A stretch of 64,000 nucleotides of DNA from Pseudochelatococcus sp. Lineage in GTDB: Bacteria > Pseudomonadota > Alphaproteobacteria > Rhizobiales > Beijerinckiaceae. This document shows, piece by piece, positions 13,914 through 36,354 of this stretch. The stretch's first letter is position 1. The number at the start of each line of letters is the position of its first letter. The notes under the pieces were generated by a model. That model ran no database searches. It saw nothing but the letters and a program-made list of their open reading frames with translations, and was not told the origin of the DNA. Both the position numbers and the translations under genes were made by a program. The stretch is from assembly GCF_050946405.1 (NCBI RefSeq), contig NZ_JBMNUS010000013.1:71443-135442 (forward strand), written 5' to 3'.

Positions 13914-13930
13914 TGAACGGGAGAAGCTGG

Positions 13931-14284: not shown

Positions 14285-14344
14285 TACCCGCACGGCCGGG
14301 TTTGCGACCGCGCCGGCCCTGCTCAAGCCCGCGCGCAGGTCATC

Positions 14345-14377: not shown

Positions 14378-14388
14378 CGCCGCGTCGA

Positions 14389-15729: not shown

Positions 15730-15966
15730 GATGAAAGCTCCTCTGGCGGTTTTTCCCGTGGCGGGTGCAGGCAGCGTAATCACGGTTATGATTTGCCAAC
15801 AAGTCCTTTTCTGATGACTGATAACACGTTGAAATATATGGTGGTGCGCGTGGCCGTGTTTCGGTTTTCGAAACGGCTGCAACGCCGGAGGCTTTTCGGT
15901 CTGACGCGTTTTTCTCGCGCGGAGCGGCATCCGCTTCGCTTGGAAACGCTTTATCGCGGGGAGGGA

Positions 15967-16518: not shown

Positions 16519-16566
16519 AGCGCGCTCCGTTCAAACGGAGAAGGAGTTTCCGGCGAGGCAGCCGGC

Positions 16567-17034
16567 TCATGTTCCGCGTCCGCGGGCGCGGGCGGCGAGC
16601 GCGTTGCGGATCGCGAAGCTCGAATGGATGCGCGACACGCCGGGCAGCGTCGACAGGATTTCGGTGTGAACGCGCTCGAACGCGGCGGCGTTCTCCACCT
16701 CCAAGCGCAGCAGGTAGTCGGCCGAACCCGTCATCAGATAGCACTCGCGAATCTCGGGATGCTTGCGCACCGCCGTCTCGAAACGGGCGAGATAATCTTC
16801 CGTCTGCCGCTCCAGCGTGATGTTGACGATGACGGCCATGGTGGCGTCCGGCAGCGCGTGGTCGATGATGGCCGTGTAGCCGCGAATCACGCCGCTGTGT
16901 TCGAGCTGCCTGATCCGCCGCAGGCAGGCGGAAGGCGACAGGCCGACTTCCCCGGCGAGTCTCGCGTTGCTCATGCGCGCGTCGAGACGCAGCAGGCGAA
17001 TGATGTTGCGGTCGACGGTGTCCAGGCCAGTCAT
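16567..17034 (-). CDS. Lrp/AsnC-family transcriptional regulator (DadR-like by context)
   Basis: MTGLDTVDRNIIRLLRLDARMSNARLAGEVGLSPSACLRRIRQLEHSGVIRGY. It is divergent from the alanine racemase gene. Confidence 0.85.
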   Translation of the reverse strand: MTGLDTVDRNIIRLLRLDARMSNARLAGEVGLSPSACLRRIRQLEHSGVIRGYTAIIDHALPDATMAVIVNITLERQTEDYLARFETAVRKHPEIRECYLMTGSADYLLRLEVENAAAFERVHTEILSTLPGVSRIHSSFAIRNALAARARGRGT

Positions 17035-17197
17035 GCAATAACCTTCCAATTCATCGTTTATTATTGCATGGAATTTCCATTGTTGAAACGATCGTGTGCA
17101 GTTTGCGCATCCATTGCGCGATCGTTGCGGTAGGCTCAATGCCGTTTCGCGGGGCTGCCCTTCGGGGTGGGCGCGGCCCTGCGCCGGGGGTGTTTTT

Positions 17198-18346
17198 ATG
17201 GTCGAAGACGTTTCTCCTGCCGTTGCGCGGCAGATATCCTGCGGCATCCTGACGGTCGATCTCGACGCGCTGGCGCGCAATTATCGCGCGCTGCGCGAGC
17301 GGCTCGCGGGCGTCGCCGCCGGGGCCGTCGTCAAGGCGGATGCCTATGGTCTCGGCGCGGAACAGGTCGCGCCCGTGCTCTATGATACCGGCTGCCGCGA
17401 CTTCTTCGTCGCCCATCTCGGCGAGGCGCTCGCGCTGCGGCCGGCACTGGATGATGACGCGCGGCTCTACGTATTGAACGGCCTGCTGCCGGGAGCGGAG
17501 AACCTGTGCGCCGACGCCGGTATCGTGCCCGTTCTCAACACGCCCGAGCAGGTGGCGAACTGGGCGGCGACGGCGCGGGCGCGCGGCCGGGAACTGCCGG
17601 CGGTGCTCCAGTTCGATACCGGCATGTCGCGGCTCGGGCTCTCCGGCGGCGAGGCGCAGGCGCTCGCGGCCGATCCCGCGCGGCTCGCCGGCGTGCGCGT
17701 CGCTTATCTGATGAGCCATCTCGCCTGCGCCGACGAGCCCGACAACCCGCAGAACGCCGATCAACTCGCGGCGATGCGCCGTTTCGCCGCCCTCTTTCCG
17801 GGGGTGCCGCCGTGCTTCGCCAATTCCGGCGGCATCTTTCTCGGCGCGGATTATCACGGCGCGCTGGCGCGCCCCGGCATCGCGCTCTACGGCGGCGCGC
17901 CGGCGGCGGGCGACGTCAACCCGATGGAACCGGTCGTGCGGCTCGACGTGCGCGTGATCCAGACCCGCACGGTGCCCGCCGGCGCCCGCGTCGGCTACGG
18001 CGGCGCCCACGTCACGGCGGGCGAAACGCGCCTCGCCACGATCGCGGCGGGTTATGCGGACGGCCTCTCCCGCCACCTCGGCGGTCGCGGCGCGGTTTAC
18101 GTCGACGGCGTGCGCCTGCCGATCGCCGGGCGCGTGTCGATGGACAGCATCACCGTCGACATATCGGCGCTGCCGCCGGGAACGTTGACGACCGGCAGCC
18201 TCGTGGAAGTGATCGGCCCGCATCAGACGCTGGAAGACGTCGCGGAAGCGGCCGGAACCATCGCCTACGAAATTCTGACCGCCCTCGGGTGGCGCTACCA
18301 TCGCGACTACGTTCGGACAGCGGAAAAAAACAGGGGAACCGCATGA
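17198..18346 (+). CDS. dadX: Alanine racemase (catabolic, DadX-type by context)
   Basis: PLP-Lys region [12 protein letters not shown], and a C-terminal region [21 protein letters not shown]. The start is the ATG at 17198 within ORF 17096..18346. Confidence 0.85.
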
Positions 18347-19602
18347 ACATCGTCATTCTCGGCGCGGGCGTGATCGGCGTCACCTCCGCCTATTATCTCG
18401 CCAGGGCGGGCCACAAGGTGACGGTGCTCGACCGCCAGCCCGGCCCGGCGCTCGAAACGAGCTTCGCCAACGCCGGCGAGATATCGCCCGGCTACGCCGC
18501 GCCATGGGCCGCGCCGGGCATTCCGCTCAAGGCGCTCAAGTGGCTGTTCATGACGCATGCGCCGCTGGTGATCCGCCCGCTGCCGGCCCTTGCCGCGTGG
18601 CGCTGGATGTTCGCCATGCTGCGCGAGTGCTCCGATGAGCGCTACAAGATCAACAAGGGGCGGATGGTGCGCCTGGCGGAATACAGCCGCGATTGCCTCA
18701 TCGTGCTGCGTGAGGAAACCGGCATCGCCTATGATCACCGCACGCAGGGCACCTTGCAGGTCTTCCGCACGCAAAAGCAGTTCGACGGCATCGCCAAGGA
18801 CATCGCGGTGCTGAAGGCGGACGGCGTGCCGTTCGAGGTGCTGGATGCGGCGGGCTGCGTCGCGGCGGAACCCGGCCTCGCGGGGGCGCGGGAGAAGATC
18901 GTCGGCGGCCTGCGCCTGCCCCACGACGAAACCGGCGATTGCTTCAAGTTCACCAACGAACTGCACCGGATCTGCGAGGGGCTCGGCGTCACGTTCCGCT
19001 TCGGCGTCGACATCCGCCGCCTGCGGGTGGCGGGCGGGCGCATCGCCGCCGTCGAAACGGCGGCCGGCGACGTCACCGCCGATGTTTTCGTCGCCGCGCT
19101 CGGCAGCTACGCGCCGGCGCTGCTCGCGCCGCTCGGCCTGCGCCTGCCGGTCTATCCGGTGAAGGGCTACTCGATCACGCTGCCCGTTGTCGACGAGGCC
19201 CGCGCGCCGGTTTCCACGGTGATGGACGAGACCTACAAGGTGGCGATCACGCGGCTCGGCGACCGCATCCGCGTGGGCGGCATGGCGGAGATCGCCGGCT
19301 TCAACCTCGATCTGCCGCCGGCGCGGCGCGCCACCCTCGAACATTCGGCCGAAGACCTTTTCGGCGGCGCGGGAGACCGGCAGCGGGCGACCTTCTGGAG
19401 CGGCCTGCGGCCGATGACGCCGGACGGCACGCCGGCCATCGGCCCGACGCGCTACGCGAATCTCTTCCTCAACGCCGGCCACGGCACGCTCGGCTGGACC
19501 ATGTCCTGCGGTTCGGGCCGCGTGTTGGCCGATCTCGTCGGGGGAACGAAGCCCGATATCGAAACGGCGGACCTCGCGCCCGGCCGCTACGAATCGCGCT
19601 GA
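18343..19602 (+). CDS. dadA: D-amino acid dehydrogenase small subunit
   Basis: [32 protein letters not shown] dinucleotide fold. There is an ATGA overlap with the racemase stop codon. C-terminal [19 protein letters not shown]. Confidence 0.9.
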
Positions 19603-19646
19603 CGCAGCCGGAATGTCCCTTCGTTACGATTGAAATGTAACGGCCG

Positions 19647-20207
19647 TTGCATTATAGGGGTGCCATGGTTTCCTTGGCATGGCTCCTCCTGACCTACAAG
19701 GTCCCCCCCGATCCCGCCGCGCGGCGGGTCGCGCTCTGGCGCAAGCTGAAGGGCATGGGCGCGGTCTATCTGCAAAACGGCGTCTGCCTGCTGCCGAAGA
19801 CCGACGATCACGCCCGCCGCCTGAAGATGATCGGGAACGACGTCGCCGAAATGGGCGGCGAGGCGGTCATTCTCGAAACCGTGGCGCTGGATCGCGGGCA
19901 GGAGGAAAAGGTCGTCGCGCGATTCAGGGCCGACCGCGACGAGCAATACCGGGAGTTCCTCGGGCGCTGCGCCGATTTCGAGGCGGAAATCGCCAAGGAA
20001 ATCGCCATCGGGAAATTCACCTACGCCGAGCTGGAGGAAGAGGACACCGACCTGAAGAAGCTTCAGGGGTGGCTGGAGAAGATCAGGAAGCTCGACTTCT
20101 ACGGCGCGCTGCTGGCGGAGGAAGCCGCCTCTCGCCTGCGAGCCTGCGAGGCGGTGCTCGAAAGCTATGCGCAGCGCGTCTTCGACGCCCATGACGAGAA
20201 CCGGTAG
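19647..20207 (+). CDS. ChrB N-terminal-domain protein (chromate-resistance regulator-like)
   Basis: WLLLTYKVPPDPAARRVALWRKLKGMGAVYLQNGVCLLPK matches my recollection of the ChrB_N family. An alternative start is the Met at 19665. Confidence 0.65.
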   Translation: MHYRGAMVSLAWLLLTYKVPPDPAARRVALWRKLKGMGAVYLQNGVCLLPKTDDHARRLKMIGNDVAEMGGEAVILETVALDRGQEEKVVARFRADRDEQYREFLGRCADFEAEIAKEIAIGKFTYAELEEEDTDLKKLQGWLEKIRKLDFYGALLAEEAASRLRACEAVLESYAQRVFDAHDENR

Positions 20208-20208
20208 T

Positions 20209-21429
20209 ATGGGCATTTTCAGGCGCGACGACGAGATGAAGGCATCGGCCGGCCGGCGCGGCATTCCCGCGGGCGTCTGGGCGCTCGGCTTTGTCTCCAT
20301 GCTGATGGATATCTCCTCCGAGATGATCCATGCGTTGCTGCCGGTCTACATGGTGGCGGTGCTCGGCACCTCCATGCTGACCGTCGGCATCATCGAAGGC
20401 ATCGCGGAGGCGACGGCCGCGATCACCAGGATCTTCTCCGGCGCGCTCAGCGACCGGCTCGGCCGGCGCAAGTTCCTCGCCGCGCTGGGCTACGGCCTCG
20501 CGGCCTTCACCAAGCCGATCTTTCCGCTGGCGCCGTCGATCGGCTGGCTCGTCGCCGCCCGTTTCATCGACCGCGTCGGCAAGGGCATTCGCGGGGCGCC
20601 GCGCGATGCGCTGGTCGCGGACATCGCGCCGCCCGAACTGCGCGGCGCGAGCTTCGGCCTGCGCCAGTCGCTCGACACGGTCGGCGCGTTCATCGGCCCG
20701 CTGCTCGCCATCGGCCTGATGTGGCTGACGGCGGATCATTTCCGGACGGTGTTCTGGATCGCGGTGATTCCGGCTTTCCTGTCGCTTGCCGTCATCCTCT
20801 TCGCGGTGAAGGAGCCGGAGCGGCCGCAGGAGCTGCGCCGCGTCCGCATGCCGCTGCGGCGCGAGGAACTGCGCCGCCTTGGCGCGGGCTACTGGCGGGT
20901 GGTCGCCGTCGCCGCCGTCTTCACGCTCGCCCGCTTCAGCGAGGCTTTCCTGATCCTGAAGGCGCAGTCCATCGGGCTGCCGCTGGCTCTCGTGCCGGTC
21001 GTTCTCGTCCTCATGAGCCTGGCCTATTCGTTGTCCGCCTATCCGGCGGGCGTGCTGTCGGACAGGATGGACCGGACGGCGATCCTGATCTGCGGCCTCG
21101 GCCTGCTCATCCTGGCCGATCTGGTGCTTGCCTTCGCCGGCGGGCTTGTCGGCCTGGGGATCGGCGTCGTGCTGTGGGGCCTGCACATGGGGCTGTCGCA
21201 GGGCATCCTGGCCACGCTCGTCGCGGATACGGCGCCGGCGGAACTGCGCGGGACGGCGTTCGGCATGTTCAATCTCGTGACCGGGTTCGCGCTGCTGGCC
21301 GCGAGCGTCATTGCGGGCGGTCTGTGGGATCTCGCCGGGCCGCGCGGCACGTTCCTCACCGGCGCGGCTTTCGCCACGCTGACGGTGGCGGGGCTGGCGA
21401 CATTGCGGCATCGGCGAGGCTCTCGCTGA
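20209..21429 (+). CDS. MFS transporter
   Basis: About 12 hydrophobic segments, and an MFS loop motif GALSDRLGRRKF. The ATG lies 1 nt after the ChrB-like stop codon. Confidence 0.8.
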   Translation: MGIFRRDDEMKASAGRRGIPAGVWALGFVSMLMDISSEMIHALLPVYMVAVLGTSMLTVGIIEGIAEATAAITRIFSGALSDRLGRRKFLAALGYGLAAFTKPIFPLAPSIGWLVAARFIDRVGKGIRGAPRDALVADIAPPELRGASFGLRQSLDTVGAFIGPLLAIGLMWLTADHFRTVFWIAVIPAFLSLAVILFAVKEPERPQELRRVRMPLRREELRRLGAGYWRVVAVAAVFTLARFSEAFLILKAQSIGLPLALVPVVLVLMSLAYSLSAYPAGVLSDRMDRTAILICGLGLLILADLVLAFAGGLVGLGIGVVLWGLHMGLSQGILATLVADTAPAELRGTAFGMFNLVTGFALLAASVIAGGLWDLAGPRGTFLTGAAFATLTVAGLATLRHRRGSR

Positions 21430-21557
21430 AGCCGTGCCGGGGCGCAAGAAATGTCGCATTCTGGCGGCGGCCGCCGCCGCCGACCGTGCGGATATCGGAT
21501 GGAATCGACACGGCCATGCCGTTCAGCGCCGGCACGGAGCGCGTTAACGCTCCTGAA

Positions 21558-21663
21558 ATTTCACGCATTTTCACGGATATTCAAGAGGTGCCTCATCAAT
21601 GGGCAGAGACTGCCTAATGGGTAGTCACATCGGCAAAAATTGCATGATAACGACAAAAATTGC
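21558..21663 (+). promoter_or_regulatory. Low-GC upstream region of the megasynthase gene with two pairs of direct repeats (candidate operator/promoter)
   Basis: ATTTCACG occurs at 21558 and 21568 (10-bp phasing). CAAAAATTGC occurs at 21634 and 21654 (20-bp phasing). This is the only AT-rich patch between the MFS gene and the FAAL domain. Confidence 0.3.
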
Positions 21664-21711
21664 GTCGCGGGGAGAGGCGGGCGCTTGCGTCGTCATCTCC
21701 CATATCGTTAC

Positions 21712-24700
21712 ATGTCGGCGACAATCAGGCAGACTTTCCCCTCCCGATCGGATCAGCCGTTCATGTGCTCGTTCAAAGCGCCGTCGACGCTCAATGACGC
21801 CCTTGTCTCAAATGCGGGCGTGTCGGAGATCGGAGTTGCGGGCATTGGCGATCCGCCGCGCGGCGTGACCTTTTTCGGGGCCGACCGCCAGCTCACGCAT
21901 GTTTCCTACGCGCAGTTGCTCGACCGCTCCCGCCGCTGGCTGTGGCATCTGACGCAGGGCGGCGTCCGCCCCGGCGACGAGGTGCTGATCGTCACCGACG
22001 ACCTGCCGCTGTTCACGACGGTTTTCTGGGCCTGCGTGCTCGGCGGCATCGTCGCCGTGCCGGTCTCGACACCCACGAACGACGAGGGGGCGCTCAAGAT
22101 CGCGCGTATCCGGGGCGTTCTGCGGCGTCCGTGGATCGTCTCGGACGCGCGGGTGCATGCTCGCCTCGCCGCCGTCGCGGACGGGATCGCGCCGGAACGC
22201 ACGGCGTGCGCCGGCGAGCGCTCGATCGCGGTTCCCGGCGTCGTGCTCGATTGTCCGGCGGCGCCGGTGGCATCCGTGGCGGCGTCGGATGTGGCCTTCA
22301 TCCAGTTTTCCTCCGGCTCGACGGGCGCGCCGAAGGGCGTGATCGTCACCCACGCCAACCTGATCGCCAATTGCACGGCCATTCTCAAGGGCATCCTTGC
22401 GAACGCGCCCGGTGAAAACGGAGAAGCCGCGCGCCTGTTGAGCTGGATGCCGCTGACGCATGACTTCGGCCTCATCTGGTTCCACATCCTGCCGACCGTC
22501 TTCGGGCTGGATCACGGCCTCGTCCCGACGAAGCTCTTCGTGCGCAACCCGCTGGTGTGGATGCAGGCGGCCTCCGACATGAAGGCGAGCGTGCTCGGCG
22601 GGCCGAATTTCTCTTACCGGCATTTCCTCAAGCATTTCGATGCCGGCAAGCCGCGCGACTGGGATCTGTCGCCGGTCCGCGTCATCGCCAACGGCGCGGA
22701 GCCCATCTCCTGCGAACTGGCGGAGGAGTTCACCGCGGCGCTCGCGCCTTGCGGACTCGATCGCGGGGCGATGACCGCCGCCTACGGGCTGGCGGAAGGC
22801 ACGCTGGTGGTGAGCATGGCGCAGCCCGGCGCGGGGCTCGGCCGGATTTCCGTCGACCGCAACCGCGTCAATCCCGGCGAGCGCGTCGCGCCGCTGGATG
22901 AAGGCGATGACGCCGCGGTGAGTTTCGCGGATGTCGGGACGCCGCTGGATTGCGTGTCGCTGCGCGTTGTCGACGAGGCGGGGCTGCCCTGCGCCGACGA
23001 TGTGGTCGGCCGCTTGCAGATAACCGGCGCGAGCGTGACCGCCGGTTACTACAACGACGACGAGGCGACGCGCGCCGCCTTCACGGCGGACGGCTGGCTG
23101 GATACGGGCGATCTGGGCTTCATGCGCGCCGGGCGTCTCGTCGTCACGGGCCGCCGCAAGGACGTGATCATCGTCAACGGGGTGAACTACTATCCGCAGG
23201 ACATCGAGCGCGTGGCCGGCGAGGCGGAAGGGCTCGACCTCAACATGGTGGTCGCCGGCGCGATCCCGCGCGGGGTTCTCGGCGAGGATCGGGAAGGCGT
23301 CGTGCTGTTCGTGCTGTTCCGGCGCGAGGTGGAGCGGTTCCTCCCGCTCGCCCGCGAGGTGCGCGACCGCGTGCTGCGCGAGATCGGCATTCCCGTCGAT
23401 CGCGTCATTCCGGTGGCCCGCATCGCCAAGACGACGAGCGGCAAGGTGCAGCGCTTTCAGATGGTGGGGCAGTTCGTCGCCGGTGCGTTCGATGAAGCGT
23501 TGCGCGCGCTCGATGCGGCGGATGCGGCCGAGGGCGCCGCGCTGCGCCGGGCGTGGGAGCGGGGCGACGAGGCCGCGCTGGTGGCGGAACTGGCGGCGTG
23601 GGGCGCGCGCATCGTGCCGGGCGGCGCGCTCGATCCGGGCCGGCCGCTCATGGAAAGCGGCTTCACGTCGCTGCGTCTCGTCGAACTGATGCGGCGCATC
23701 GGCCGCGCGCTCTCGCTGGACCTGCCGGTCACGCTCGCCTTCGAACAGCCGACGCTGGCGGCGCTCGCCGGCGCGCTCGTGCGCCTGCGCAGCGCCGATG
23801 CCGCGCCTGCGGAAGCGCCGCGCGCCGCGCCGGCGGCGGAGCGGGCGCGGATCGGCATCACCGGGCTGGCCTGCCGCCTGCCCGGCGGCGTTGAAAGCCC
23901 GGCCGGCTTCTGGCGGCTGCTTGAAGGCGGCGTCGATGCGACGGCGCCGGTCGCGCCCGGCCGCTGGCCGGCTTACGACGCCAGCCTGACCGTGACCGAT
24001 CGCGGCGGCTATCTGGCGGATATCGAAACCTTTCCGGCCCGGTTCTTCAATCTGACGCAGGTGGAGGCCGATGCCGTCGACCCGCAGCAACGGCTGCTGC
24101 TCATGACGGCCTGGGAGGCGCTGGAGCACGCGGGGATCGATCCGCTGTCGCTGAAGGGATCGCGCACCGGCGTGTTCGTGGGCATCAGCCCCGGCGATTA
24201 CGTGCAGGCGCAGGCGCGCGCCGGCCGGCTCGACGCCATCGGCCCGCATGCGTTTCTCGGCAGCGCAACGAGCGTCGCGGCCGGGCGCATCGCCTATGTG
24301 CTGGGGCTGGAGGGGCCGGCGCTGGCCGTCGACACGGCCTGTTCGTCGGCGCTCGCGGCGCTCCATCTCGCGGTGCGGGCGCTGCGGGCCGGCGAGTGCG
24401 ACCGCGCGCTGGTGGCGGGCGTCAATCTCATCCTCGGCCCCGAGATGCATGTGGGCCTCAGCCGCATGAACGCGCTGTCGCCCGCGGGGCGCTGCCGGGC
24501 TTTCGACGCGGCGGCGGACGGCTACGCGCGCGGCGAGGGCTGCGTCACGCTCGTGCTGGAGCGTCTCGATGCCGGAGATGCGCCACGTCCGCTCGCCCTT
24601 GTGCGCGGCACGGGCCTCAACCACGACGGCGCGTCGAACGGGCTCACCGCGCCCAACGGCGCGGCCCAGCGGGCGGTGATCGCCGCCGCGCTCGCGGATG

Positions 24701-27700
24701 CGGGCCTTGCGCCGGCCGATGTCGACTATGTGGAGGCGCACGGCACCGGCACGCCGCTCGGCGACCCGATCGAGGCGATGGCGCTGGCGGAAGCCTACGG
24801 CGCGGGGCGCGACGGCGAGCTGCGCGTCGGCTCCGTCAAGACCAACATCGGCCATCTGGAGGCCGCCGCCGGTCTTGCCGGCCTCGCCAAGGCGGTGCTC
24901 GCGCTCCGGCATGGCAGCCTGCCGGCCTCGCTGCATTTCGAGACGCCCAATCCGCTGATTCCGTGGCCGCAACTGCCCCTGCGCGTCGTCGACCGCGCCG
25001 AGCCGTGGCCGGCCGTGGCCGGGCGGGTGCGCCGGGCCGGCGTCAGCGCCTTCGGCATGAGCGGCACCAACGCGCATGTCATCATCGAGGAAGCACCGCC
25101 GGCGCCCGTGCCCGCGCATGACGACGCGCGGGCGACGGTGCTGCCGGTTTCCGCGCGCACGCCGGAGGAATGCGCCGCGCTGGCGGAGCGTTACGCGGCC
25201 GCGCTGGAGCGCGCCGACAGCGGCCGCATGCACGATCTGGCCCGCACGGCAGCGTGCGGCCGGGCGGCGATGGCGCATCGGCTGGCGGTGACGGGACGCG
25301 ATCCGGCGGAACTCGCCGCGAAGTTGCGGGCGAAGGCCGCCGCCGGGGCTGGCAGGCCCGATGCCGGCGCGCCCGTCGTCTTCCTGCTGCCGGGGCAGGG
25401 GGCGCATGCGCCGGAGGCGGTGCGCGCGCTCCATGCGCGCGAGCGCGTGTTCCGTGAGACGCTGGATGCGGCCGATGCGGCGCTTGAGGGCTTTCTGGAC
25501 CGGCGCCTGACCGATCTCCTGCTGTCGCCGGAGGGCGCGCCGCTTCTGGGGCGCACGGCCTACAACCAGCCGGCGACGGTGGCGGTGTCGCTGGCGGTGG
25601 CGGCGATGCTGCGGGCGTTCGGCGTGCGGCCCGATGCGGTCATCGGGCATTCGGCCGGCGAGATCGCGGCGGCGGCGCTCGCGGGCATGCTGGATCTGCC
25701 CACGGCGGTGCGGTTCGCGGCGGCGCGCGGCGCGGCCATGCAGGCGCTCGACGGCGGCGCGATGATCGCGGTGCGCGCGCCGGCGCAGACGATCAACGAC
25801 GTGATTGCGCAGACCCTGGCGCGGGTCGAGGGCGTGGGCGTCGCCGCCTGGAACGCGCCGGCGCGCGTCACGCTGTCGGGGCCGCGCGAGGCGGTGGCGC
25901 GGGCGGCCGCCGTCCTGCGCGAGGCAGGCGCGCGCGTGGCAGAGCTGCGCGTGGCGGAGCTGGACGTGTCGCACGCCTTCCACTCGCCGATGATGGACGG
26001 CGCGCTCGCCCCCATCCGCGAACTTGCCGCCGGCCTCACGGTGAGCGCGGCGACGGGGCGCATGATTTCCACGCTGACGGGCGGGCCGGTCGATGCCGGG
26101 GCGCTGCGCGATCCCGCCTATTGGGCGCGGCAGGCGCGCGAGCCGGTGGCCTTTGCCGCCGCCGTGTCGGCGGTGGGGGGCGATGCGCCCGACCGCGTCG
26201 ATCCGGTTCTGATCGATCTTGGCGCGCGGCCGGTGCTGGCGCCGCTCGCGGCGGAGGTGCTGCCGCAGGCGCGCTGCCTCGCCGTCTGCGACGCGCGCCG
26301 GCCCGACGAGCGGCTCATCGAGACGCTGGGCGAACTGTTCGAAGCCGGCCGGCCCGTGGCATGGCCCGCCGTCTTCGCGGAGCGTCCCGGCCGGCTCGCG
26401 GAAGCGCCGACCTATCCCTTCATCGGCAAGACGCGCGTGCTGCCGACGGCCGGTGCGGATTCCCGCGCCGGCGAAGCGCAGGCGGCCGGCCGGGCGGAAG
26501 CGCTGCCCGTGCCCGCGGCGACAGCCCCGGTGGCGGGGCGCGAGGCGGTTGCGCACGTCATCCGCAGCGTCCTGCGCGGCGTCGCCGGGCTCCAGCCGGA
26601 GGAGGTGGCGGGCGATGCGACATGGTTCAGCCTCGGCCTCGATTCGCTGCTGATCGTCCAGCTCCAGCAGGCGCTGGCGCGCGAATACGCCATCGACCTG
26701 CCGCTCGCCGCCGTCATGGAGAACGGCGATACGCTCGACCGGCTCGTGACCCTCGTGGTGGAGCGCCTGCCCCGCGTGGCGCAAGCGCCGGTGGAAGCGC
26801 CCGTTATGGAGACGCCCGCTGCGGCGGCGGCTGGCGGCGAAGGCGTCGAGGGGCTTCTCGCCCGGCAGATCGACGCCATGAGCGCGCTGTTCAGCCAGCA
26901 ACTCGCGTTGCTTCAGGGCGGAGTCCGGCCGGCGGTTTCGACGCCCGCCGCTATCCCGGACGTCGCAGTCGCCGGGCCGGCCCCGGCCGCGCCGAAACGC
27001 GAGATCAAGGGCCTGTTCAAGGCGCTGCCGGCGCGCAGGGAGCAGGCGAATCCGGCGCAGGAGGCGCATGTGCGCCGCCTTGCCGCCGCCTTCAACGCCC
27101 GCACGCGCTCCTCGAAGGAGCATACGGCTGCCTATCGTGGCGTCTACGCCAACCCGCGCGCCGTGATCGGCTTCCGCCCCGAGTGGAAGGAGCTGAACTA
27201 CCCCCTGCATGTGGAGCGGGCGGAAGGGCCGTATGTGTGGGATATCGACGGCCATCGTTATGTCGACATCACCATGGGTTTCGGCGTGACGCTGTTTGGC
27301 CACAACCCGCCCTTCGTGCGCGAGGCGCTGGCGGCGGAGCTTGCCGCCGGCTTTCCCGTCGGCCCGCAGAGCGCGCGGGCCGGGCGGGTCGCCGCCATGA
27401 TCAGCGCCATGACCGGCGTGGAGCGGGTGGCGCTGTTCACCACCGGCAGCGAGGCCGTCATGGTCGCGCTGCGGCTGGCGCGCGCGAAAACCGGCCGGCG
27501 CAAGATCGTGACCTTCGTCAATTCCTATCACGGCACGTTCGACGGCGTGCTGGCGGTGGGCTGGACCGAGGGCGCGCGCGTGACGACCATGCCCGTGAGC
27601 GAAGGTACGCCGCAAGGCATGGTCGATGACGTGATCGTGCTGCGCTACGGCGATCCGGCCGCGCTCGACGTCATCCGCCAGCACCTCGCCGAACTGGCGG

Positions 27701-30700
27701 CCGTGGTGGTGGAGCCGGTGCAGAGCCGCGACCCGGCGGTGCAGCCGCGCGCCTTCCTGCACGAGTTGCGGGCGCTGACGGCGCAGGCGGGCGTCGCGCT
27801 CGTTTTCGACGAGACGATCACCGGCTTTCGCGTGCATCCCGGCGGGGCGCAACGCCATTTCGGCATCGAGGCCGATATCGTCACCTACGGCAAGGTCGTC
27901 GGCGGCGGCATGCCGATCGGCGTCGTCTCGGGAAGGCGGCATTATCTCGACGGCGTCGACGGCGGCGACTGGCAGTATGGCGACGATTCCGTTCCTTCCG
28001 CCCGCACCGCCTTCGTGGCCGGCACCTTCAACAACCATCCCCTGACGGCGGCGGCGGCGGAGGCGGTGCTGAAGCACCTCGCCGCCGAGGGGCCGCAGTT
28101 GCAGGAGCGGCTGAACGCCCGCACCGCCGCGATGTGCGCCGAGCTAGACGCCCTGTTCGCGGCCGAGGACGTGCCCGTCCGCATGGCGCATTTCAGCTCG
28201 CTGTTCCGTTTCGAGTTCGCCGGCGACACCGAGATCCTCAACTATCACCTGCTCAACAACGGCGTTTTCGTCTGGGAGGGGCGCAACTGCTTCCTCTCCA
28301 CCGCCCACAGCGACGACGACATCCGCTTCATCGTCGAGGCGGTGCGCAAGGGCATCGCGGAGATGCGGGCCGGCGGATGGCTGCCGCCGTCGCCGGGCCG
28401 CGCCGCGCCCGAGGCGCGCCAAGAGCATGGTGCGCGCGAGGAGGCAGGACCGGCGCCGCTCGGCCGGGGGCAGGGCGAGATGCTGGCGCTGCTCGAAGCG
28501 CGGCCGGAGGCGACGCTCGCCTATAACGAGATGGTGGCCTTCGCGCTCGACGGCCCGCTCGACCGGGAGGCGCTGCGCCGCGCCTTCGCCGGGCTCGTGC
28601 GGCGCCACGAGGCGCTGCGTTGCGCGGGCATCGACGAGACCGGCTGGCGCGCGGCGGCTCTTCCGCCCGCCGACCTGCCGGCGGAAGAGCCGGCCGAAGA
28701 AGGAGCGGTGATGGCGCGCCTGGCGCGCGAACTCGAAACGCCGTTCGATCTGCAACGCGGGCCGCTCATGCGCGCGCTGCTGCTGCGCCTTGCGCCGCAG
28801 CGGCATGTGGTGGCTTTCACCGTGCATCACATCGTCGCCGACGGCTGGTCGCTCGGCCTGATGGCGGGCGAACTCGCGGCGCTTTACGCCGCCGAACGGG
28901 CCGGCGTGGCGGCGGCGCTGCCGCCGGCCGAATCGTTCCGCGCCTTCGTCGCCTGGACGCAGGGCTTGGACGGCGGCGCGTCTCCGATGGCGGAAGACAG
29001 CGCGCCCGTCGTCCTGCCGGCCGCCGATTTCCCGCATCGCGCGTCCTTCCGCGGCGGGCGCGTCCACCGCCGCCTGTCGGCGGGCGGGCGGGAAGGCGAA
29101 GGCGTGTTCGATGCCGCGAGGCGTTTCGCGCGCGCGCATGACACAAGCCCGTTCACGGTGCTGCTCGCGGCCTATGCGCTGCTGCTCGGCCGCCTGTCGG
29201 ACCAGCGCCGGCTGACCATCGGCATTCCCGTCGCCGGCCATACGGAGGCCGGCTTGCCGGTGATGGTGGGGCAGGCGTCGGCGGTGCTGCCGCTGACGCT
29301 GGAACTCGATCCGCAAGCGGATTTCGCAGCCCTCGTTGCCCATGTGAAGGCGGCGCTGGCCGATGCCCGGCACGGCGTCGGCGGGCTCTTCACCGCGCAG
29401 GGCGGGCGGGGCACCGATGTCAACGTGCTGTTCAACCTCGACCGCGGTTTCCGGCTCGATTTCGAGGGATTGGGGCTGACGTGGATATCGCCTCCGGTCA
29501 GCCGGCCGAAAAAGGACCTGTTCCTCAACGTGCTGGAGCTGAACGGCGAAGCGCTGCTCGATCTCGATCATGACGGTGCGCTGGGCGATTCCGCCACGGC
29601 GGAGCGCTGGCTCGATTCCTTCCTGTCGCTGCTCGCCGAGGGGCTGCGCGCGCCCGCGACGCCGATCGCGCGCCTGCCGCTCTCCGCCGCTGACCGGGCG
29701 GCACAGGCGGATGATGTGCGCACGCGCGACGGCTTCGGCGCGCCGGCCGCCATCGGCACGGTCGCGCCGGTGGAGGCGCGCGACGATGCGGGGCTTTGGG
29801 CCGACACGGGGCGGCTCGGCCGGCTGCGGGCGGATGGCGGCGTCGAGGTGCTGGGCGAGGCGCGGCGTTTCCTGCGCACGCGCGGCGGCTGGCTCGATCT
29901 CGACCTTCCGGCGCGGGTGCTGCGGGAACACCCGGCGCTGGCCGATGCCGCCGTGATCGCGGAATCCGGCGGGCTGACCGCCTTCGTGACGCCGCGCGCG
30001 GGCGGGCAGGTCGACGGGCAGGCGCTCGCCGCCTATGCGGCGCTGCGGCTGCCGCCCGAGGCGCGGCCGGCCGCCTTCGTCGTGACGGATATCGCGCGCG
30101 ATGCCGGGGGGCGCGCCCTCCTGCGCGCCGATCACGGCGAGCGTCTCGCCACGCGCGCCCTCACGCCCGCCCGCACCGATGCGGAGAAGGCGGTCGCGGC
30201 GATCTGGGCCGAGGTTCTCGGGCTGGAGGAAGTCGGCGTCCTCGACAGCTTCTTCGACCTCGGCGGTCACAGCCTCAAGGCGCTCGCCATCCTCGCGCGC
30301 GTCGAGGCGCGGCTCGGGCGCACCGTGCGGCTGCGCGCCTTCTTCGAGGAGCCGACCGTGGCGGGGCTCGCGTCACGTCTGGGCGCGGGCGAGGCGCATG
30401 CCGTCATTCCGACCGCGGCACCGGCGGCGCATTATCCGGCGTCGAACGCGCAGGCGCGGCTGTGGATGCTCGACCGGATCGATCCCGGCCTTGCCGCCTA
30501 CAACATCGGCTTTTCGCTGCGCAGCGCCGCGCCTCTCGACGAAACCGCGCTGCGGATCGCGCTGGCGGGCCTCGCCGGGCGGCACGAGAGCCTGCGCACG
30601 GCGCTCATCGACCATGACGGCCTGCCGCGCCAGACGATCCTGCCCGCGTTGCAGCCCGAGCTGCGCATCGAGGATGCGGTGGGCGCGGACGCGGCGGCGC

Positions 30701-33700
30701 TCGTCGCGCGGGAGCGGGCCATCGCCGCCGAGCCCTTCGCGCTGGAGCGCGCGCCGCTCTGGCGGGCGGTGCTGCTGCGCGGGGGGCAAGGGGATATCGA
30801 GCCGGCGGGCGACCGTCTGGTGTTCGTGCTGCATCATGCCATTGCCGATGTGTGGTCGGTCGGCGTTTTCGTGCGGGATTTTCTGGCGTTGTACGCAGAG
30901 GCCGGCGGCGCACGGCTGCCGGCGCTGGCGCTGCAATACCGGGATTATGCGGTCTGGCAGGTGGGGCGGCCGGAGCCGCATCTTGACTGGTGGGTCGCGG
31001 CGCTGGCGGATGCGCCCCGGCTGGAGCTGCGGCCCGACCGGCCGCGCCCGCCGCTCAAGACCTTCAACGGCGATCATGTCGTTCTCGATGTGCCGGGGCC
31101 GGTCGCGGCGGCCCTCAAGGCGCTTGCCGCCGTCAACGGCGCGAGCGCGTTCACGGCGGTGGTCGCGGCGCTCTGCAACCTGCTGTGGGAAGAGACGGAG
31201 GCGCGCGACATCGTCATCGGCACGGTGACGGCGGGGCGCGACCATCCGGCGCTCGCGGACCAGATCGGTTTCTTCGTCAACACGCTGGCGCTGCGCGCGC
31301 GGGTGGCGCCGGAGGCGGGCTTCCTGCCGCTGCTCGCGGGCGTGCGCGATGCGCTGCTGGCGGCGGCCGAACATGGCGATACGCCGCTCGACCGGGTGGT
31401 CGAGGCGTTGAACCGCCCGCGCGATCCGGCGCGCAATCCGCTGTTCGAGGTCGTCGTGGTCATGGACGACCGCGAGGAGATCGACCGGCTGCTCGCCGGC
31501 ACCGGCTTCGCGCTCGCGGAAATCGACACGGCGACGGCGCAGTTCGACCTCACGCTTTATGTCACCGACGGCGCGGACGGCATCCGCATCAAGGCGACCT
31601 ACAATACCGACCTGTTCGACCGCGCCCGCATCGAGGGACTGATGGCGCGGCTGGCGGGGCTGATGGCGGGGGCGGCCGCCGATCCGGCGCGCGCGCTCGC
31701 CGCGCGGGCGCAGGGGGGCAGGGCGGCGCATGGTTCCGCGCCTGGCCAACGGCAAGGCTACGCGCCGTCGCGCCATCAGGAGCGGCTGTGGTTCGTGGAT
31801 CACTTCGAGCGCGGCGTGCTCTATCCGTCCGGGCCGACCTATTACAACATGCCGTTCGTGGTGCGCGTCGACGGCGCGGTCGATGCCGCGCGGCTCGCGG
31901 CTGCCGCTGCGGCGCTTGCGGCGCGGCATGAGGCGCTGCGCGCGGCGCTCGTCACGCAGGGCGACCGTCCGGCCGTCGAGGTCGCGGCGGCTGCGGCGCT
32001 GCCGGTTGCGGAGATTGCGGCGCCGGCGGGGGCGGGGCTTGCCGCAGTCGAGGAGGCGAGCCGCGCGGCCTTCGACCTCGATACGCCGCCGCTCGCCCGT
32101 CTGACGCTCTGCCGCGAGGCGGGGAGCGGCGCCTGCTGGCTCGCCCTGACGGTTCATCACGCCATGGGCGACCGGGCGGCGCTGCGCACGCTGGCGGAGG
32201 AACTCGCCCGCCTTTATGCCGACCCGGCCGCCGCCCTGCCGGAAATCCGCCCCTTCGGCGCGGCCCATGCGCTGCCGGAGCGGGCGGTGGAGGCCGGCCA
32301 TGAGGCGGATGCCGCCTATTGGCGCGAGGCGCTGGCGGGCGTTTCCGCGCTCGTGCTGCCGACGGACCGGCCCCGCCCCGCGATCCACACCTTCACGGCG
32401 GGCCGCGTCGCGGGGCGGCTCGACGCGGCGCTGCGCGGGCGGATCGACGCGCTGGCGGCGGCGCTCGGCGTGAGCCGGGCGGATGTGCTGCGCGCCGGTT
32501 ATCAGGCGTTGCTGCATCGTCTTTCCGGCCAGCGGGATGTCGTCATCGGCGAGACCGTGCAGCCGCCGCAACCGGCGCGGACGGTCGGGCCGCTCGCCAA
32601 TCTCCTGCCCTTGCGGCTCGACGTGGAGGCCGGCGAGGGCTTTGCCGCGCTGGTGCGGCGCGCGGCGGCGCGGCGGCAGGCGGATGCGGCGCATGGCGCG
32701 ATCCCCTTCGATCTGCTGGTGCTGGCGGTGAAGCCGCGCAACGACATGAGCCGCACGGCGCTGTTCGATGTGCTGTTCCACCATGAGAATGCGACCGCCG
32801 CCCTGCCGGCCGGGTGGGCGGCGGTCGACACCGGGCTCGGCTGGGGCAAGTACGATTTCGTGCTGTCCGTGGTGCCGGATGGCGACGGGCTGGCGGTGAG
32901 CCTCGTCTACAACCGCGACCTTTTCGACGCCGCCAGCGCGCAGGCCGTCCACGCGCGCTACGGGCAACTGCTGGCGGCGGCGCTGGCGCAGCCGGAGCGG
33001 CCGCTGTCTGCGCTCGACATCATGCTGCCGGGAGAGCGCGCGGCGCTGCTGGCCGAAGCCGGCGAGGTGGCCGATTACCCGCGCGGCCTCACGCTCACGG
33101 CGCGTTTCGAGGAGATGGCGGCGCGCCACGGGGCGCGCATCGCCGTCACCGACACCGACGGGGAACTGACCTATGCGGCGCTCGACGCGCGCGCCAACCG
33201 GCTGGCGCATCGCCTGCGCGCGCTCGGCGCGGGACCGGAGGCGCTGGTCGGGCTGTTCGTGGGGCGCACCTGGCGCATTCCCGCTGGCATTCTCGGCATT
33301 CTCAAGGCGGGCGCGGGCTATGTGCCGATCGATCCCGCCTATCCCGACGAGCGCATCCGCTTCATGGTGGCGGATTCGGGCATGCGGCTCATCGTCACCG
33401 ACGCTGAAAACGCGGCGGCGGCGCACCGCCTCGGCATTGCTACGGTGGTGATCGATGATCTGGCGGAGGACCTGCCCGTCGCGGCGACACCCGAAAATGC
33501 CGCGCCCGAAAATGCTGCGCCCGAGAACGTCGCTTACGTCATCTACACGTCCGGTTCCACCGGCATGCCCAAGGGCTGCGTCATCGAGCACCGCAACGTC
33601 ATCCAGCTCTTCTTCCACGAGGGGCGGCCGTTCGCCTTCGGGCCGGATGACGTGTGGAGCCTGTTCCACTCCGCCTGTTTCGACTTCTCGACGTGGGAGA

Positions 33701-36354
33701 TCTACGGCGCGCTGCTCTTCGGCGGCCGGCTCGTCGTCGTGCCGCAGGCGCTGACGCGTGAGCCCGCCGCCTTTCTGGAACTCGTCGCCCGCGAGGGGGT
33801 GACGGTGCTGAGCCAGACGCCGACCGCCTTTTACGGGCTGATCGAGGCGGCCCGGCAGCGCCCCGGCCTGCATCTTGCGCTGCGCGAGATCGTCTTCGGC
33901 GGGGAAGCGCTGGCGCCGGCCCGGCTTGCCCCGTGGCGGGCGCTCCACCCGGCCGCGCGCCTCGTCAACATGTACGGCATCACCGAAACGACGGTGCATG
34001 TGACGTTCAGGGAGATCGGCGACGCCGAGATCGCGGAGGGCCGCAGCGTCATCGGCCGGCCGCTGCCGTCCTGCGGCGTGTTGCTCGTCGGCCCCGATCT
34101 CGCGCCCTGCCCGCGGGGCGTGGCCGGCGAGATCGTGGTCGCGGGCCACGGCGTCGCCCGCCGCTACCTGAACCGGCCGGAACTCACGGCGGAGCGCTTC
34201 ATCGCGCACCCGGACCTGCCCGGCGGGCGCGTCTACCGCTCCGGCGATCTCGGCCGGATCGGGCTTGACGGCGAGCTGGTCTATCTCGGCCGCATGGACG
34301 ATCAGGTCAAGATACGCGGCTTTCGCATCGAGCCTGGCGAGATCGAGCGCCGGCTGGTCGCGCATCCCGCGATCCGCGATGCGGCCGTTCTCGCCGAGGG
34401 CGGCGAGGGCGGCGAGGGCGCGGCGGGCGAGAGCCTCTGCGCCTGTGTCGTCACCGATGCGCCGCCCGGCCGCGAGGAGCTGTTTCACTATCTGGCGGAC
34501 AAGCTGCCCGACTACATGATTCCGTCGCGCTTCCTGCGCGTGGCGCGCATCCCGCTCACGGCCAACGGCAAGGCGGACCGCCGGCGGCTCGCGGCGGAGG
34601 GCGGCGAGGCGATCGGCGCGGGGGGCGGCGCGGAGGAAGGCCGGGCGCCGCGAACGCCACTGCAAAAGGCGGTGGCGCGCATCTGGTGCGAGGTGCTGGG
34701 CGTGCCGCAGGTGGGGCTCGACGACAATTTCTTCGCGCTCGGCGGCCATAGCCTCAAGGCCAATCAGGTCGTGGTGCGCATCCGCCAGCGCCTCGGCGGC
34801 AGTCTCGACCTGCGCGATTTCTTCAGCGCGCAGACGCTCGCCGTGCTGGTCGAGCTGATCGAGCGGCGCGGGCTCGGCGCGGCGGGCACTATTGCCCCGG
34901 CGCCGTCCGCGCCCGACTATCCGCTCTCCTTCGCGCAGCGCCGGCTGTGGCTGGTGCAGAACATGAACCCCGATAGGGTGGCCTACAACATGGCCGGCGC
35001 CTTCGTCGTGGAGGGGGCCGTCGACCGGGAGCGGCTGGCGGCGGCGTTCCGGGCGCTGGCGGTGCGCCACGAGATCCTGCGCACGCGCTTCGTCTCGCGC
35101 CACGGCGAGCCCCGGCAGGTGGTGGATGCCGGCATCGACGGGCATATGGCGGTGTTCGAGGCCGGCCATGACGCGGGAAGCGGCGGGATGGCGGCCGTGG
35201 AGCGGCTGCTCGCGGCGGAGCTTCGCCATGTCTTCGATCTCGCGCGCGGGCCGCTGGCGCGGGTGCATCTGGCGGAGCTGCCCGTCAAAGGGCACGGCGG
35301 CTGCGCCATCATCATCAACCTGCATCATATCGTCTCCGACGGCTGGTCGGTGACGGTCATGCTGCGCGAGCTGGAGGCGCTCTACCGCGCGGCGCTGGCT
35401 GCGCCGCAGGCGACGCCGGCGGAGATCGCGGCGCGGGCCGGGCTGCCGGCGCTGCCGGTCCAGTACCGGGACTATGCCTTGTGGCAGCACGGCGAGGCGG
35501 CGGGCGAAGGGTTGCGGGCGGCCCGCTCCTACTGGCTCGCCCGCTTCGAGGACGAGGCGCCGGCGCTGGAACTGCCGGCCGACCGGCCGCGTCCGCATAC
35601 GCCCGGCGGGGCCGGCGCCATCGTGCATGCCGTGCTCGACGAGGAACTGACGCAGGCGCTGAGGGACCTCGCGCGCCGCCACGACATGAGCCTGTTCGGC
35701 GTGCTCGCCGCGCTCGTGCGGGTGCAGCTCGCGCTCCTGTCGGGGCAGGACGACATCACCATCGGCACGCCGGTCGCCGGCCGCAACCTGCTGGAGCTGG
35801 AGGGGCAGATCGGCTTCTACCTCAACCTGCTGGCGCTGCGCGGCCGCATCGGGCCGCAGGATGCCTTCGGCGATGTCCTGAAGGCGGAGCGCACCCTGGT
35901 GCTCGACGCCTTCGCCCATGAAGCCTGTCCGTTCGACCTCCTGGTCGGGGAGCTGGGCGTCACGCCGGAGCGCGGCCGCCATCCGCTTTTCGACGTGCTG
36001 ATCATTCTCCAGAACAACGAGCCCGTGCGCCTCGACCTTGCCGGGAGCCGGGGCGCGCCGCTGCGCGATACCAGCATCAGCGCCAAATACGATCTCAACT
36101 ATATGTTCGAGGACCGGCCGGCGCTCGAACTGCTGCTGGAATACGCGGCGGATCTTTTCGATGCGGACACGGCCCGCCGCATCGCCGGGGATTTCGTCGC
36201 CCTCGCGCGGGCGGTCGCCGCCGATCCCTCCATCGGCGTCGACAGCCTGCGGGATCGCATGCAGCGGGCCGTGCCGCCGCCGGATGCGCCAGCGGCGGAT
36301 GTGCTGGCGCATGACGCGGCGCATGGTGCGGCTTTTGCCGATGACGGGTGGTGA
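21712..36354 (+). CDS. Hybrid FAAL-PKS-aminotransferase-NRPS megasynthase: FAAL-ACP-KS-AT-ACP-AMT-C-(A remnant)-PCP-C-C-A-PCP-C
   Basis: A single ORF (21640..36354; the 21640 codon is TTG) carries all the motifs listed in the domain features below. The most likely ATG starts are 21712 (MSATIRQ) or 21763 ([14 protein letters not shown]). Confidence 0.95.
   Translation: [4880 protein letters not shown]
21850..23490 (+). other. Domain: fatty acyl-AMP ligase / acyl ligase (FAAL-like adenylation domain)
   Basis: [22 protein letters not shown] (about 22290-22350), [37 protein letters not shown], and a terminal SGKVQRF. Confidence 0.85.
23560..23790 (+). other. Domain: ACP1
   Basis: [19 protein letters not shown]; the candidate Ppant Ser codon is at 23668..23670. 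Confidence 0.7.
23845..25110 (+). other. Domain: ketosynthase (KS)
   Basis: VDTACSS with Cys at 24340..24342, [27 protein letters not shown], and it ends at [10 protein letters not shown]. Confidence 0.9.
25370..26290 (+). other. Domain: acyltransferase (cis-AT, malonyl-type signature)
   Basis: [16 protein letters not shown] with Ser at 25651..25653, and SHAFHSP (the HAFH motif is associated with malonyl-CoA selection). Confidence 0.85.
26530..26770 (+). other. Domain: ACP2
   Basis: [18 protein letters not shown]; Ser codon at 26644..26646. Confidence 0.85.
27080..28390 (+). other. Domain: PLP-dependent class III aminotransferase (AMT, glutamate-1-semialdehyde aminomutase-like)
   Basis: [42 protein letters not shown], and [13 protein letters not shown] with the candidate PLP Lys at 27892..27894. 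Confidence 0.85.
28450..29690 (+). other. Domain: condensation C1
   Basis: HHIVADGWS at 28825. Confidence 0.85.
29700..30150 (+). other. Vestigial adenylation-domain remnant (C-terminal subdomain only, motifs decayed)
   Basis: There are only about 190 codons between the end of C1 and the PCP1 serine. WADTGRL stands in place of A7, [22 protein letters not shown] in place of A8, and DAGGRALLR in place of A10. No A1-A6 motifs are present. Confidence 0.7.
30170..30390 (+). other. Domain: PCP1
   Basis: [11 protein letters not shown]; Ser codon at 30271..30273. Confidence 0.9.
30420..31700 (+). other. Domain: condensation C2
   Basis: [16 protein letters not shown] at the start; HHAIADVWS at 30832. 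Confidence 0.85.
31760..33010 (+). other. Domain: condensation-like C3 (tandem to C2, atypical active-site context HHAMGDRAA)
   Basis: It starts [30 protein letters not shown], with HHAMGD at 32155. No carrier domain lies between C2 and C3. Confidence 0.75.
33070..34600 (+). other. Domain: adenylation A2 (by-eye code DFWSVGMVHK, Thr-like)
   Basis: [14 protein letters not shown] (about 33540), [51 protein letters not shown]. Confidence 0.85.
33490..33534 (+). repeat. In-frame 15-bp tandem repeat x3 ([15 protein letters not shown]) inside A2
   Basis: cccgaaaatgccgcg / cccgaaaatgctgcg / cccgagaacgtcgct, read directly. Confidence 0.9.
34650..34870 (+). other. Domain: PCP2
   Basis: [11 protein letters not shown]; Ser codon at 34750..34752. 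Confidence 0.9.
34915..36354 (+). other. Domain: C-terminal condensation C4
   Basis: [16 protein letters not shown] at the start; HHIVSDGWS at 35323. The protein ends about 340 codons later with no carrier or TE domain. Confidence 0.85.

Follow-up and report, generated by a model that had tools for sequence, protein, structure and literature searches.

Domain organisation of the megasynthase gene

The 64,000-nucleotide (nt) stretch analysed here (the window) derives from Pseudochelatococcus sp. (RefSeq assembly GCF_050946405.1, contig NZ_JBMNUS010000013.1, positions 71,443 to 135,442 of the forward strand) and has a G+C content of approximately 70%. It contains a hybrid polyketide synthase/nonribosomal peptide synthetase (PKS/NRPS) megasynthase gene, the first part of which probably constitutes the lipoinitiation region of a MycA/ItuA-type synthetase. 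In this reading, to which we assign a probability of roughly 0.85, an integrated malonyl-specific acyltransferase (AT) would replace the separate enzyme FenF/ItuD. The gene lies within a single uninterrupted open reading frame (ORF) of the + strand (21640..36354, 14.7 kb, 4904 amino acids (aa)). Pfam matches gave the layout FAAL-ACP1-KS-AT-ACP2-AMT-C1-(A relic)-PCP1-C2-C3-A-PCP2-C4, in which the fatty acyl-AMP ligase (FAAL), an acyl carrier protein (ACP), a ketosynthase (KS), the AT, a second ACP and a class-III aminotransferase (AMT) follow one another in one frame and one polypeptide upstream of the first condensation (C) domain. The order of these six domains had already been proposed in an initial annotation made from the DNA letters and is confirmed by the Pfam order and the single ORF. 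The gene and its starter domains are as follows; all motifs were located by a search in the megasynthase frame.

21712..36354, + strand: hybrid PKS/NRPS megasynthase gene (ORF list, translation, Pfam, colinear orthologues)
21712..23559, + strand: FAAL (Pfam AMP-binding, N-terminal copy, 1.2e-50)
22309..22338, + strand: ligase motif SSGSTGAPKG
23572..23814, + strand: ACP1 (PP-binding, 9.7e-11; 51% identical to ACP1 of the homologue P0001)
23659..23673, + strand: GFTSL with the phosphopantetheine serine of ACP1
23842..24954, + strand: KS (ketoacyl-synt, 1.2e-78; Ketoacyl-synt_C, 8.9e-44)
24331..24348, + strand: KS motif DTACSS
24733..24753, + strand: KS motif EAHGTGT
24844..24861, + strand: KS motif NIGHLE
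to about 25371, + strand: KS-AT linker (KAsynt_C_assoc and KS-MAT linker models)
25372..26319, + strand: cis-AT of the malonyl type, embedded between KS and ACP2 (Acyl_transf_1, 5.8e-39 to 5e-37)
25645..25662, + strand: AT motif GHSAGE
25933..25962, + strand: 15-bp tandem duplication in the AT (RVAEL RVAEL), four residues upstream of the HAFH motif
25969..25989, + strand: AT motif SHAFHSP
26527..26769, + strand: ACP2 (PP-binding, 2.4e-11 and 4.7e-10)
26632..26649, + strand: ACP2 motif LGLDSL
27100..28395, + strand: class-III AMT dependent on pyridoxal 5'-phosphate (PLP) (Aminotran_3, 9.8e-53 to 6e-51)
27883..27909, + strand: AMT motif TYGKVVGGG
27892..27894, + strand: AAG codon of the Schiff-base lysine of the AMT

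The Pfam E-values of the starter domains are far beyond chance. Every motif quoted in the initial annotation was searched for in the megasynthase frame and occurred there exactly once, so that all nine motifs and the AAG codon of the PLP lysine were recovered where they had been placed. No Pfam match to a reductive domain (ketoreductase (KR), dehydratase (DH) or enoylreductase (ER)) was detected between KS and ACP2, and no oxygenase domain was found by Pfam in the megasynthase.

The start codon of the gene is ambiguous. The ORF opens with TTG at 21640, but the likely starts are TTG at 21685, which has the Shine-Dalgarno-like sequence GGGAGAGG 8 nt upstream, or ATG at 21712, the start used in the initial annotation, for which a comparison of the start candidates revealed no Shine-Dalgarno-like site upstream. 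The FAAL domain is unaffected by the choice between these two codons. An antisense ORF (21808..28077, - strand, 2089 aa) spans the whole starter region; like the other overlapping ORFs, it gave no Pfam match, and all of them are artefacts of a high-GC coding sequence.

Properties of the starter domains

Among the NCBIfam models, the N-terminal ligase matched best to PRK09192 (fatty acyl-AMP ligase, 332 bits; cutoff 600 bits). In a search of the PDB its best solved relatives belonged to the FAAL class (3PBK and 3KXW, with the E. coli and Legionella FAALs among them, McyG 4R0M and FadD32). The spacing between the core motifs A5 and A6 amounts to 75 aa in the ligase versus 51-52 aa in the four NRPS adenylation (A) domains of the cluster, and the resulting 24-aa insertion fits the FAAL-specific insertion. 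Over 548 residues the ligase is 41% identical to the acyl ligase of an iturin-type subunit of Bacillus amyloliquefaciens (P0069). An N-terminal FAAL that would load a carrier protein, and not coenzyme A, as in the iturin-type synthetases, is supported by these comparisons.

In the KS, the Cys-His-His triad is present (DTACSS, EAHGTGT, NIGHLE), and the domain is flanked by the carrier domains with the motifs GFTSL and LGLDSL. The second of these carriers, ACP2, is proposed to hold the malonyl, beta-ketoacyl and beta-aminoacyl intermediates. Malonyl specificity of ATs is indicated by a GHSxGE motif with a residue other than Gln at x, a conserved Arg and the sequence HAFH instead of YASH. When the AT was aligned with solved cis-ATs including CurL (4MZ0), the catalytic Ser, the Arg (ARGAAM) and the His of HAFH were all found to be kept, and the three residues are likewise conserved in orthologues from Methylobacterium and Xanthobacter. 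A lack of the catalytic His, which had been named beforehand as an observation that would speak against a functional AT, was therefore not encountered. Judged by its motifs, the domain is probably a malonyl-specific cis-AT.

The AMT aligned end to end, over 432 residues, with the solved AMT domain of MycA (6KFM, 6KFR, 6KFU; E 5e-155), with the TYGK sequences in register. With the AMT of P0069 it shares 53% identity, and the translation shows the motifs TTGSEAV, YHG and FDETITGFR for the binding of phosphate and pyridine. The domain is a class-III (glutamate-1-semialdehyde aminomutase-like) homologue of the MycA AMT in which the PLP lysine is kept. The comparison with MycA had been suggested in the initial annotation, and the full-length homology contradicts a non-catalytic or truncated aminotransferase fold.

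The C1-PCP1 pair

Downstream of the AMT, the following features were identified before the second C domain:

28480..29682, + strand: C1, first condensation domain (Condensation, 1.7e-47)
28825..28851, + strand: C1 motif HHIVADGWS
29740..30170, + strand: relic of the C-terminal subdomain of an A domain (weak AMP-binding_C match, 1.4e-4)
30172..30414, + strand: PCP1, peptidyl carrier protein (PCP) domain without an A domain, Ser codon at 30271 (PP-binding, 5.9e-16; 41% identity to the first PCP of P0069)

The best match of C1 in P0069 is the first C domain, which is located directly after the AMT (residues 1941-2380). An AMT followed by C, by a PCP lacking an A domain and then by C-A-PCP is found in the iturin-type synthetases, and the positional homology to P0069 reveals the same succession in the window. 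In ItuA, the first C domain is reported to move the beta-amino fatty acid to the first PCP, after which the second C domain couples it to Asn (PMC11751314). Since the first C-PCP pair of ItuA is described as a chain-transfer step, the starter unit would, by the iturin paradigm, extend to about 30414, with C1-PCP1 belonging to the starter machinery and passing the beta-aminoacyl chain on. The initial annotation, which had called the machinery complete, was right in that all six domains are present, but its end at 28390 leaves out C1 and the A-less PCP1 (28480..30414).

The stretch between C1 and PCP1 contains degenerate sequences resembling A7 to A10, which show 55-66% identity in the orthologues without large gaps. 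The window, P0001 and the two orthologues all lack an A3 motif in this stretch, and the window has no A core at this position. Some relatives from Bacillales carry a similar extra segment of approximately 110-150 aa between C1 and PCP1, while the B. amyloliquefaciens homologue is devoid of it. These observations suggest that the C-PCP transfer pair was derived from a full C-A-PCP module. It was also considered that C1-PCP1 is an anomalous A-less module that must be loaded in trans, possibly by an AsnB-like enzyme encoded directly downstream. This was rejected because iturin-type synthetases share the order AMT-C-PCP-C-A-PCP, with the first C domain feeding the first PCP, and because the AsnB-like gene is also present in clusters without C1-PCP1.

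Proposed route of lipoinitiation and points against it

From the identity and order of the domains, their catalytic residues and their homology to characterised domains, as described above, we infer a route that includes the fatty-acid substrate, its chain length, the amine donor, the C1-PCP1 transfer and the product. The FAAL would adenylate a free fatty acid and load it onto ACP1, while the cis-AT would load malonate onto ACP2. The KS would then form a Cn+2 beta-ketoacyl-S-ACP2, which would not be subject to reduction or dehydration by KR, DH or ER domains. By means of PLP bound to Lys 27892..27894, the AMT would convert this intermediate to beta-aminoacyl-S-ACP2, the donor probably being Gln as in MycA, whose AMT uses glutamine (PMC3870968). 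C1 would hand the chain to the A-less PCP1. A single C2 extension followed by transamination of the beta-keto thioester had been anticipated in the initial annotation. It agrees with a cis-AT module lacking KR, DH and ER and with a MycA-like AMT, and it is well supported as an inference because the residues of AMT, FAAL, AT and KS fit and reductive domains are lacking.

Several observations weigh against this route. One of them is the RVAEL duplication, which had been overlooked in the initial annotation and which is a unique five-residue insertion within an otherwise length-invariant segment of the AT. It is specific to the window and absent from all homologues examined, including the Methylobacterium and Xanthobacter orthologues. 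Of 57 other AT domains, 54 (both orthologues included) have 35 aa between an upstream N-x-P landmark and HAFH, and only the AT of the window has 40 aa. Because the additional residues are situated only four residues before the catalytic-His motif, they might cripple the cis-AT, in which case either the housekeeping FabD would have to provide malonyl in trans, in the way that FenF serves MycA, or the cluster would be non-functional in this strain. We regard this as unlikely, since the second RVAEL copy brings the sequence back into its native register as far as the His, no catalytic residue is disrupted, the two DNA copies differ at one synonymous base, and the rest of the 14.7-kb ORF is intact. 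In addition, an AlphaFold model of the AT domain, which was built on a 17-sequence alignment, kept the fold (mean pLDDT, the predicted local distance difference test score, 92.5). In this model, the first copy lies in a surface loop that follows helix 186-200, whereas the second copy forms the native strand, and the pLDDT is at least 93 throughout the segment. The model would still be compatible with an impaired activity, but because the fold is kept and the second copy occupies the native strand, the AT is probably functional despite the duplication. The duplication itself might have arisen by recent mutation or through an error of the assembly.

A second point concerns the acyl substrate. 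The scores of the ligase against the NCBIfam FAAL models fall below the curated cutoffs, and McyG, an activator of phenylpropanoids, is one of its close structural relatives, so that the acyl substrate need not be a fatty acid. The ligase might instead load, for example, an aromatic or a short branched acid, as McyG-type loading domains do, which would make the product a beta-amino acid peptide and not a lipopeptide. Such a non-fatty starter would be in line with the position of 4R0M among the three best solved relatives and with a top PDB match that is annotated only as an adenylation-domain protein. It is nevertheless improbable, to about the same degree as a crippled AT: the best NCBIfam models are FAAL families, the 41% identity over 548 residues links the enzyme to an iturin-type acyl ligase, and homologues of the whole architecture are labelled iturin-family subunit A by JGI. 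Two further points have to be added. The chain transfer assigned to C1-PCP1 is derived from what has been proposed for the iturin synthetase, and the best database match of the megasynthase is only 60% identical, the protein and its close relatives being known from sequence alone.

Distribution of the fused layout

The databases were searched with the 2226-aa region, and the best 120 cluster representatives were subjected to a domain-by-domain BLAST census. FAAL, KS, AT and AMT occurred in this order in one protein in 82 of the 120, of which 56 continue into a C domain and 17 are stand-alone FAAL-to-AMT proteins. The 82 fused proteins belong to Proteobacteria, Myxococcota, Bacteroidota, Actinomycetota and even to Paenibacillus, their hosts including Sphaerotilus, Melittangium, Cystobacter, Chitinophaga, Alteromonas, Actinokineospora, Iodobacter, Microbulbifer, Zooshikella, Pseudoalteromonas and Paenibacillus. 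FAAL-KS-AMT proteins without a cis-AT accounted for 15 of the 120 representatives, all of them iturin types from Bacillales. Furthermore, the survey of PLP domains by Milano et al. in 2013 tabulates the architecture A-CP-KS-AT-CP-PLP1 for Pedobacter heparinus C6XWU5 and A-CP-KS-AT-CP-PLP1-C-CP-C-C-A-CP-C, with Mal and Thr predictions, for Thiorhodococcus drewsii G2E5C9 (PMC3870968), the latter being identical in layout to the protein of the window.

The initial annotation had implied that the fully fused cis-AT arrangement is special. It is instead the majority architecture in the census. It is very unlikely that the beta-amino starter machinery of the window is a rare variant produced by a new fusion. 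Complete fusion is indeed lacking in the systems studied best (MycA and ItuA depend on a discrete malonyl transacylase, and FAAL, ACP and PKS are split in the puwainaphycin system), but the fused form is spread over several phyla and was listed, down to the full layout of T. drewsii, in 2013. As judged from the sequences compared, the all-in-one starter with a cis-AT is a common and already catalogued form. Since the single-polypeptide layout is so widespread, the value of the locus as a compact target for engineering, which had also been put forward, does not exceed that of dozens of available homologues, several of which come from cultured strains. Our understanding of how beta-amino starters are built remains unchanged by this locus.

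The nearest database protein, from a locus of GCA_977010415.1 (L001), is 60% identical to the megasynthase. L001 shares the neighbouring genes for an AsnB-like protein, an A-PCP-C-A-PCP NRPS with a methyltransferase (MT) domain in its second A domain, a C-A-PCP NRPS with a thioesterase (TE) domain, DUF697 proteins and a beta-lactamase-fold protein. By a genome scan, colinear megasynthases were identified in Methylobacterium sp. EM32 (4864 aa) and Xanthobacter sp. VTT E-85238 (4880 aa), each followed by an AsnB-like gene. The identity of the orthologues per 100 residues is 55-85%, and there are no large gaps. JGI annotates homologues of the whole architecture as iturin-family subunit A. P0019 of Cystobacter fuscus was considered as the cystomanamide synthetase CtmA and rejected, as its first A domain has a Gly-type code (read by hand), not an Asn code. 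Literature searches for FAAL-ACP-KS-AT and for named products of the family yielded nothing relevant.

The remaining genes of the cluster

An MFS transporter gene and an intergenic region richer in AT precede the cluster, and genes of ordinary metabolism are located upstream. The remainder of the megasynthase and the downstream biosynthetic genes comprise the following features, the specificity codes of the A domains being approximate:

30427..36246, + strand: C2, C3, A (Thr-like code DFWSVGMVH), PCP2 and C4 of the megasynthase (Pfam, HHxxxD motifs, specificity code)
36358..38247, + strand: AsnB-type glutamine-dependent amidotransferase (Pfam GATase_7 and Asn_synthase; N-terminus MCGIVG)
38244..45683, + strand: NRPS2, A-PCP-C-A(MT)-PCP-E with a terminal epimerisation (E) domain (Pfam, E-domain motifs, start codon)
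54332..58387, + strand: NRPS3, C-A-PCP-TE, Asp-like code DLTKLGHI (Pfam, code, start codon)

Two condensation-like domains in tandem (30427..33050), C2 with the motif HHAIADVWS and C3 with HHAMGDRAAL, precede the Thr-type A domain, whose code corresponds to DFWNIGMVH in L001. Both match ordinary C domains in the PDB. C2 was also considered as an epimerisation domain, which was rejected as it has C-type motifs and the only E domain is that at the end of NRPS2. The additional tandem domain might dehydrate Thr or serve a partner enzyme as a scaffold. Including this module, the cluster encodes four A domains in total. The codes of NRPS2 are DVRHLALLA, which is unassigned, and DAATIAAVC, which is Phe-like and belongs to the domain with the MT; both are identical in the related locus L083. 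According to this organisation, C2/C3 would couple the beta-aminoacyl chain to Thr on PCP2, and C4 together with NRPS2 (A-PCP-C-A(MT)-PCP-E), and then NRPS3 (C-A(Asp-like)-PCP-TE), would add three more residues. The TE would release a short, probably cyclic, lipopeptide, whose ring is possibly closed on the beta-amine as in iturins. Downstream of the megasynthase, the cluster also holds a cyclic-peptide ABC exporter that scores above its curated cutoff.

In each of the four related loci (L001, L002, L003 and L083), the AsnB-like gene immediately follows the FAAL-AMT gene, and in the window its stop codon overlaps the start of NRPS2 (ATGA at 38244). The protein reached 434.7 bits with TIGR01536 (cutoff 267), and its best PDB match is the hydroxyamidotransferase 7YLZ. 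It probably amidates a carboxylate, for instance that of an Asp-type residue, because the catalytic Cys2 is kept and the protein is far closer to carboxylate-amidating enzymes than to beta-lactam synthetase. The latter activity, acting on the beta-amino acid, had been considered in view of the beta-lactamase-fold gene nearby. It was rejected on account of the retained Cys2 (MCGIVG), the passed TIGR01536 cutoff and the match to beta-lactam synthetase of only 1e-11 versus 5e-58 for an amidotransferase.

A protein of 1144 aa encoded inside the cluster (47402..50836) consists of a serine beta-lactamase/penicillin-binding-protein fold (PF00144) joined to an autotransporter beta-barrel. It may act as a hydrolase in processing or self-protection. 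A beta-lactamase-fold gene also adjoins the L001 cluster. Between the NRPS genes and beyond (50858..54318 and 58441..59295), two ORFs of 318 and 284 aa are present, in addition to DUF697 and SPFH/Band-7 genes. The two ORFs in these intervals gave no family match, and DUF697 genes recur beside the related clusters in L001 and L083.

In a sister cluster, L083/L084 (loci of P0006, genes 3292..26297), the FAAL-ACP-KS-AT-ACP-AMT protein ends after the AMT. Three A domains (DVRHLALLA, DAATIAAVC, DLTKLGHV) are accompanied in this cluster by no more than two C domains and by a single E and a single TE domain. With three A and two C domains, no C domain is free to accept the beta-aminoacyl chain, which hints at a non-canonical joining or release step.

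Altogether, the locus appears to represent an orphan lipopeptide cluster whose megasynthase is an intact and colinear member, 60% identical to its nearest relative, of a known and widespread architecture. The cluster probably makes a beta-amino fatty acid peptide. To our knowledge, no beta-amino lipopeptides of this sort have been described from Alphaproteobacteria, the home of the nearest relatives found, and the locus is for this reason a reasonable target for genome mining. It is conceivable, if rather doubtful, that the family formed by the window, Methylobacterium sp. EM32, Xanthobacter sp. VTT E-85238, GCA_977010415.1 and metagenomic relatives makes an undescribed Gram-negative class of short iturin-like beta-amino lipopeptides, with a chemistry beyond the iturin rules to which the invariant AsnB-type gene and the shortage of C domains in L083/L084 would point.

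Comparison with known systems

The synthetases MycA, ItuA and BmyA of mycosubtilin, iturin and bacillomycin from Bacillus share with the protein of the window the order FAAL, ACP, KS, ACP, AMT, C, A-less PCP, C, A, PCP. They perform one C2 extension without reduction, followed by transamination, as the protein of the window would do. The comparison with P0069 was colinear (identities: FAAL 41%, KS 39%, AMT 53%, C1 26%, PCP1 41%), while a counterpart of the AT was not detected in P0069 in the domain-by-domain comparison. In the Bacillus iturin-type systems, malonyl transfer is accomplished by the separate, trans-acting FenF/ItuD (PMC11751314), as the initial annotation had stated for FenF of mycosubtilin. 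By contrast, the AT is integrated in the protein of the window, and among the iturin-type traits compared, this built-in AT is the sole architectural difference between the two starter machineries. In addition, the protein of the window differs from MycA, ItuA and BmyA in the A relic between C1 and PCP1 and in C3, a supernumerary C-like domain that precedes the first A domain. This first A domain is Thr-type instead of Asn-type, and the cluster has far fewer amino-acid modules (four A domains).

A cis-AT and an embedded class-III AMT that converts a beta-keto to a beta-amino group on the carrier are also known from the modules of McyE (microcystin) and NdaF, which are organised as KS-AT-ACP-AMT-C-A-PCP. 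McyE does not possess an N-terminal FAAL-ACP and receives its chain from upstream PKS modules.

The puwainaphycin proteins PuwC/PuwD/PuwB/PuwE and RmyA of ralsolamycin resemble the protein of the window in belonging to FAAL-initiated pathways for beta-amino fatty acids with a PKS module and an embedded AMT. In the puwainaphycin system, FAAL, ACP and the first PKS reside on separate proteins, which agrees with the statement in the initial annotation, and PuwE adds a monooxygenase. RmyA-type proteins carry additional luciferase-like monooxygenase domains after the AMT, whereas the protein of the window is devoid of an oxygenase domain.

The systems depending on FenF/ItuD and the puwainaphycin system do not represent the family as a whole. 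The Methylobacterium and Xanthobacter orthologues, G2E5C9 and C6XWU5 are distinguished from the protein of the window only by sequence divergence (60-62% identity to the nearest) and by the RVAEL duplication that is specific to the window.

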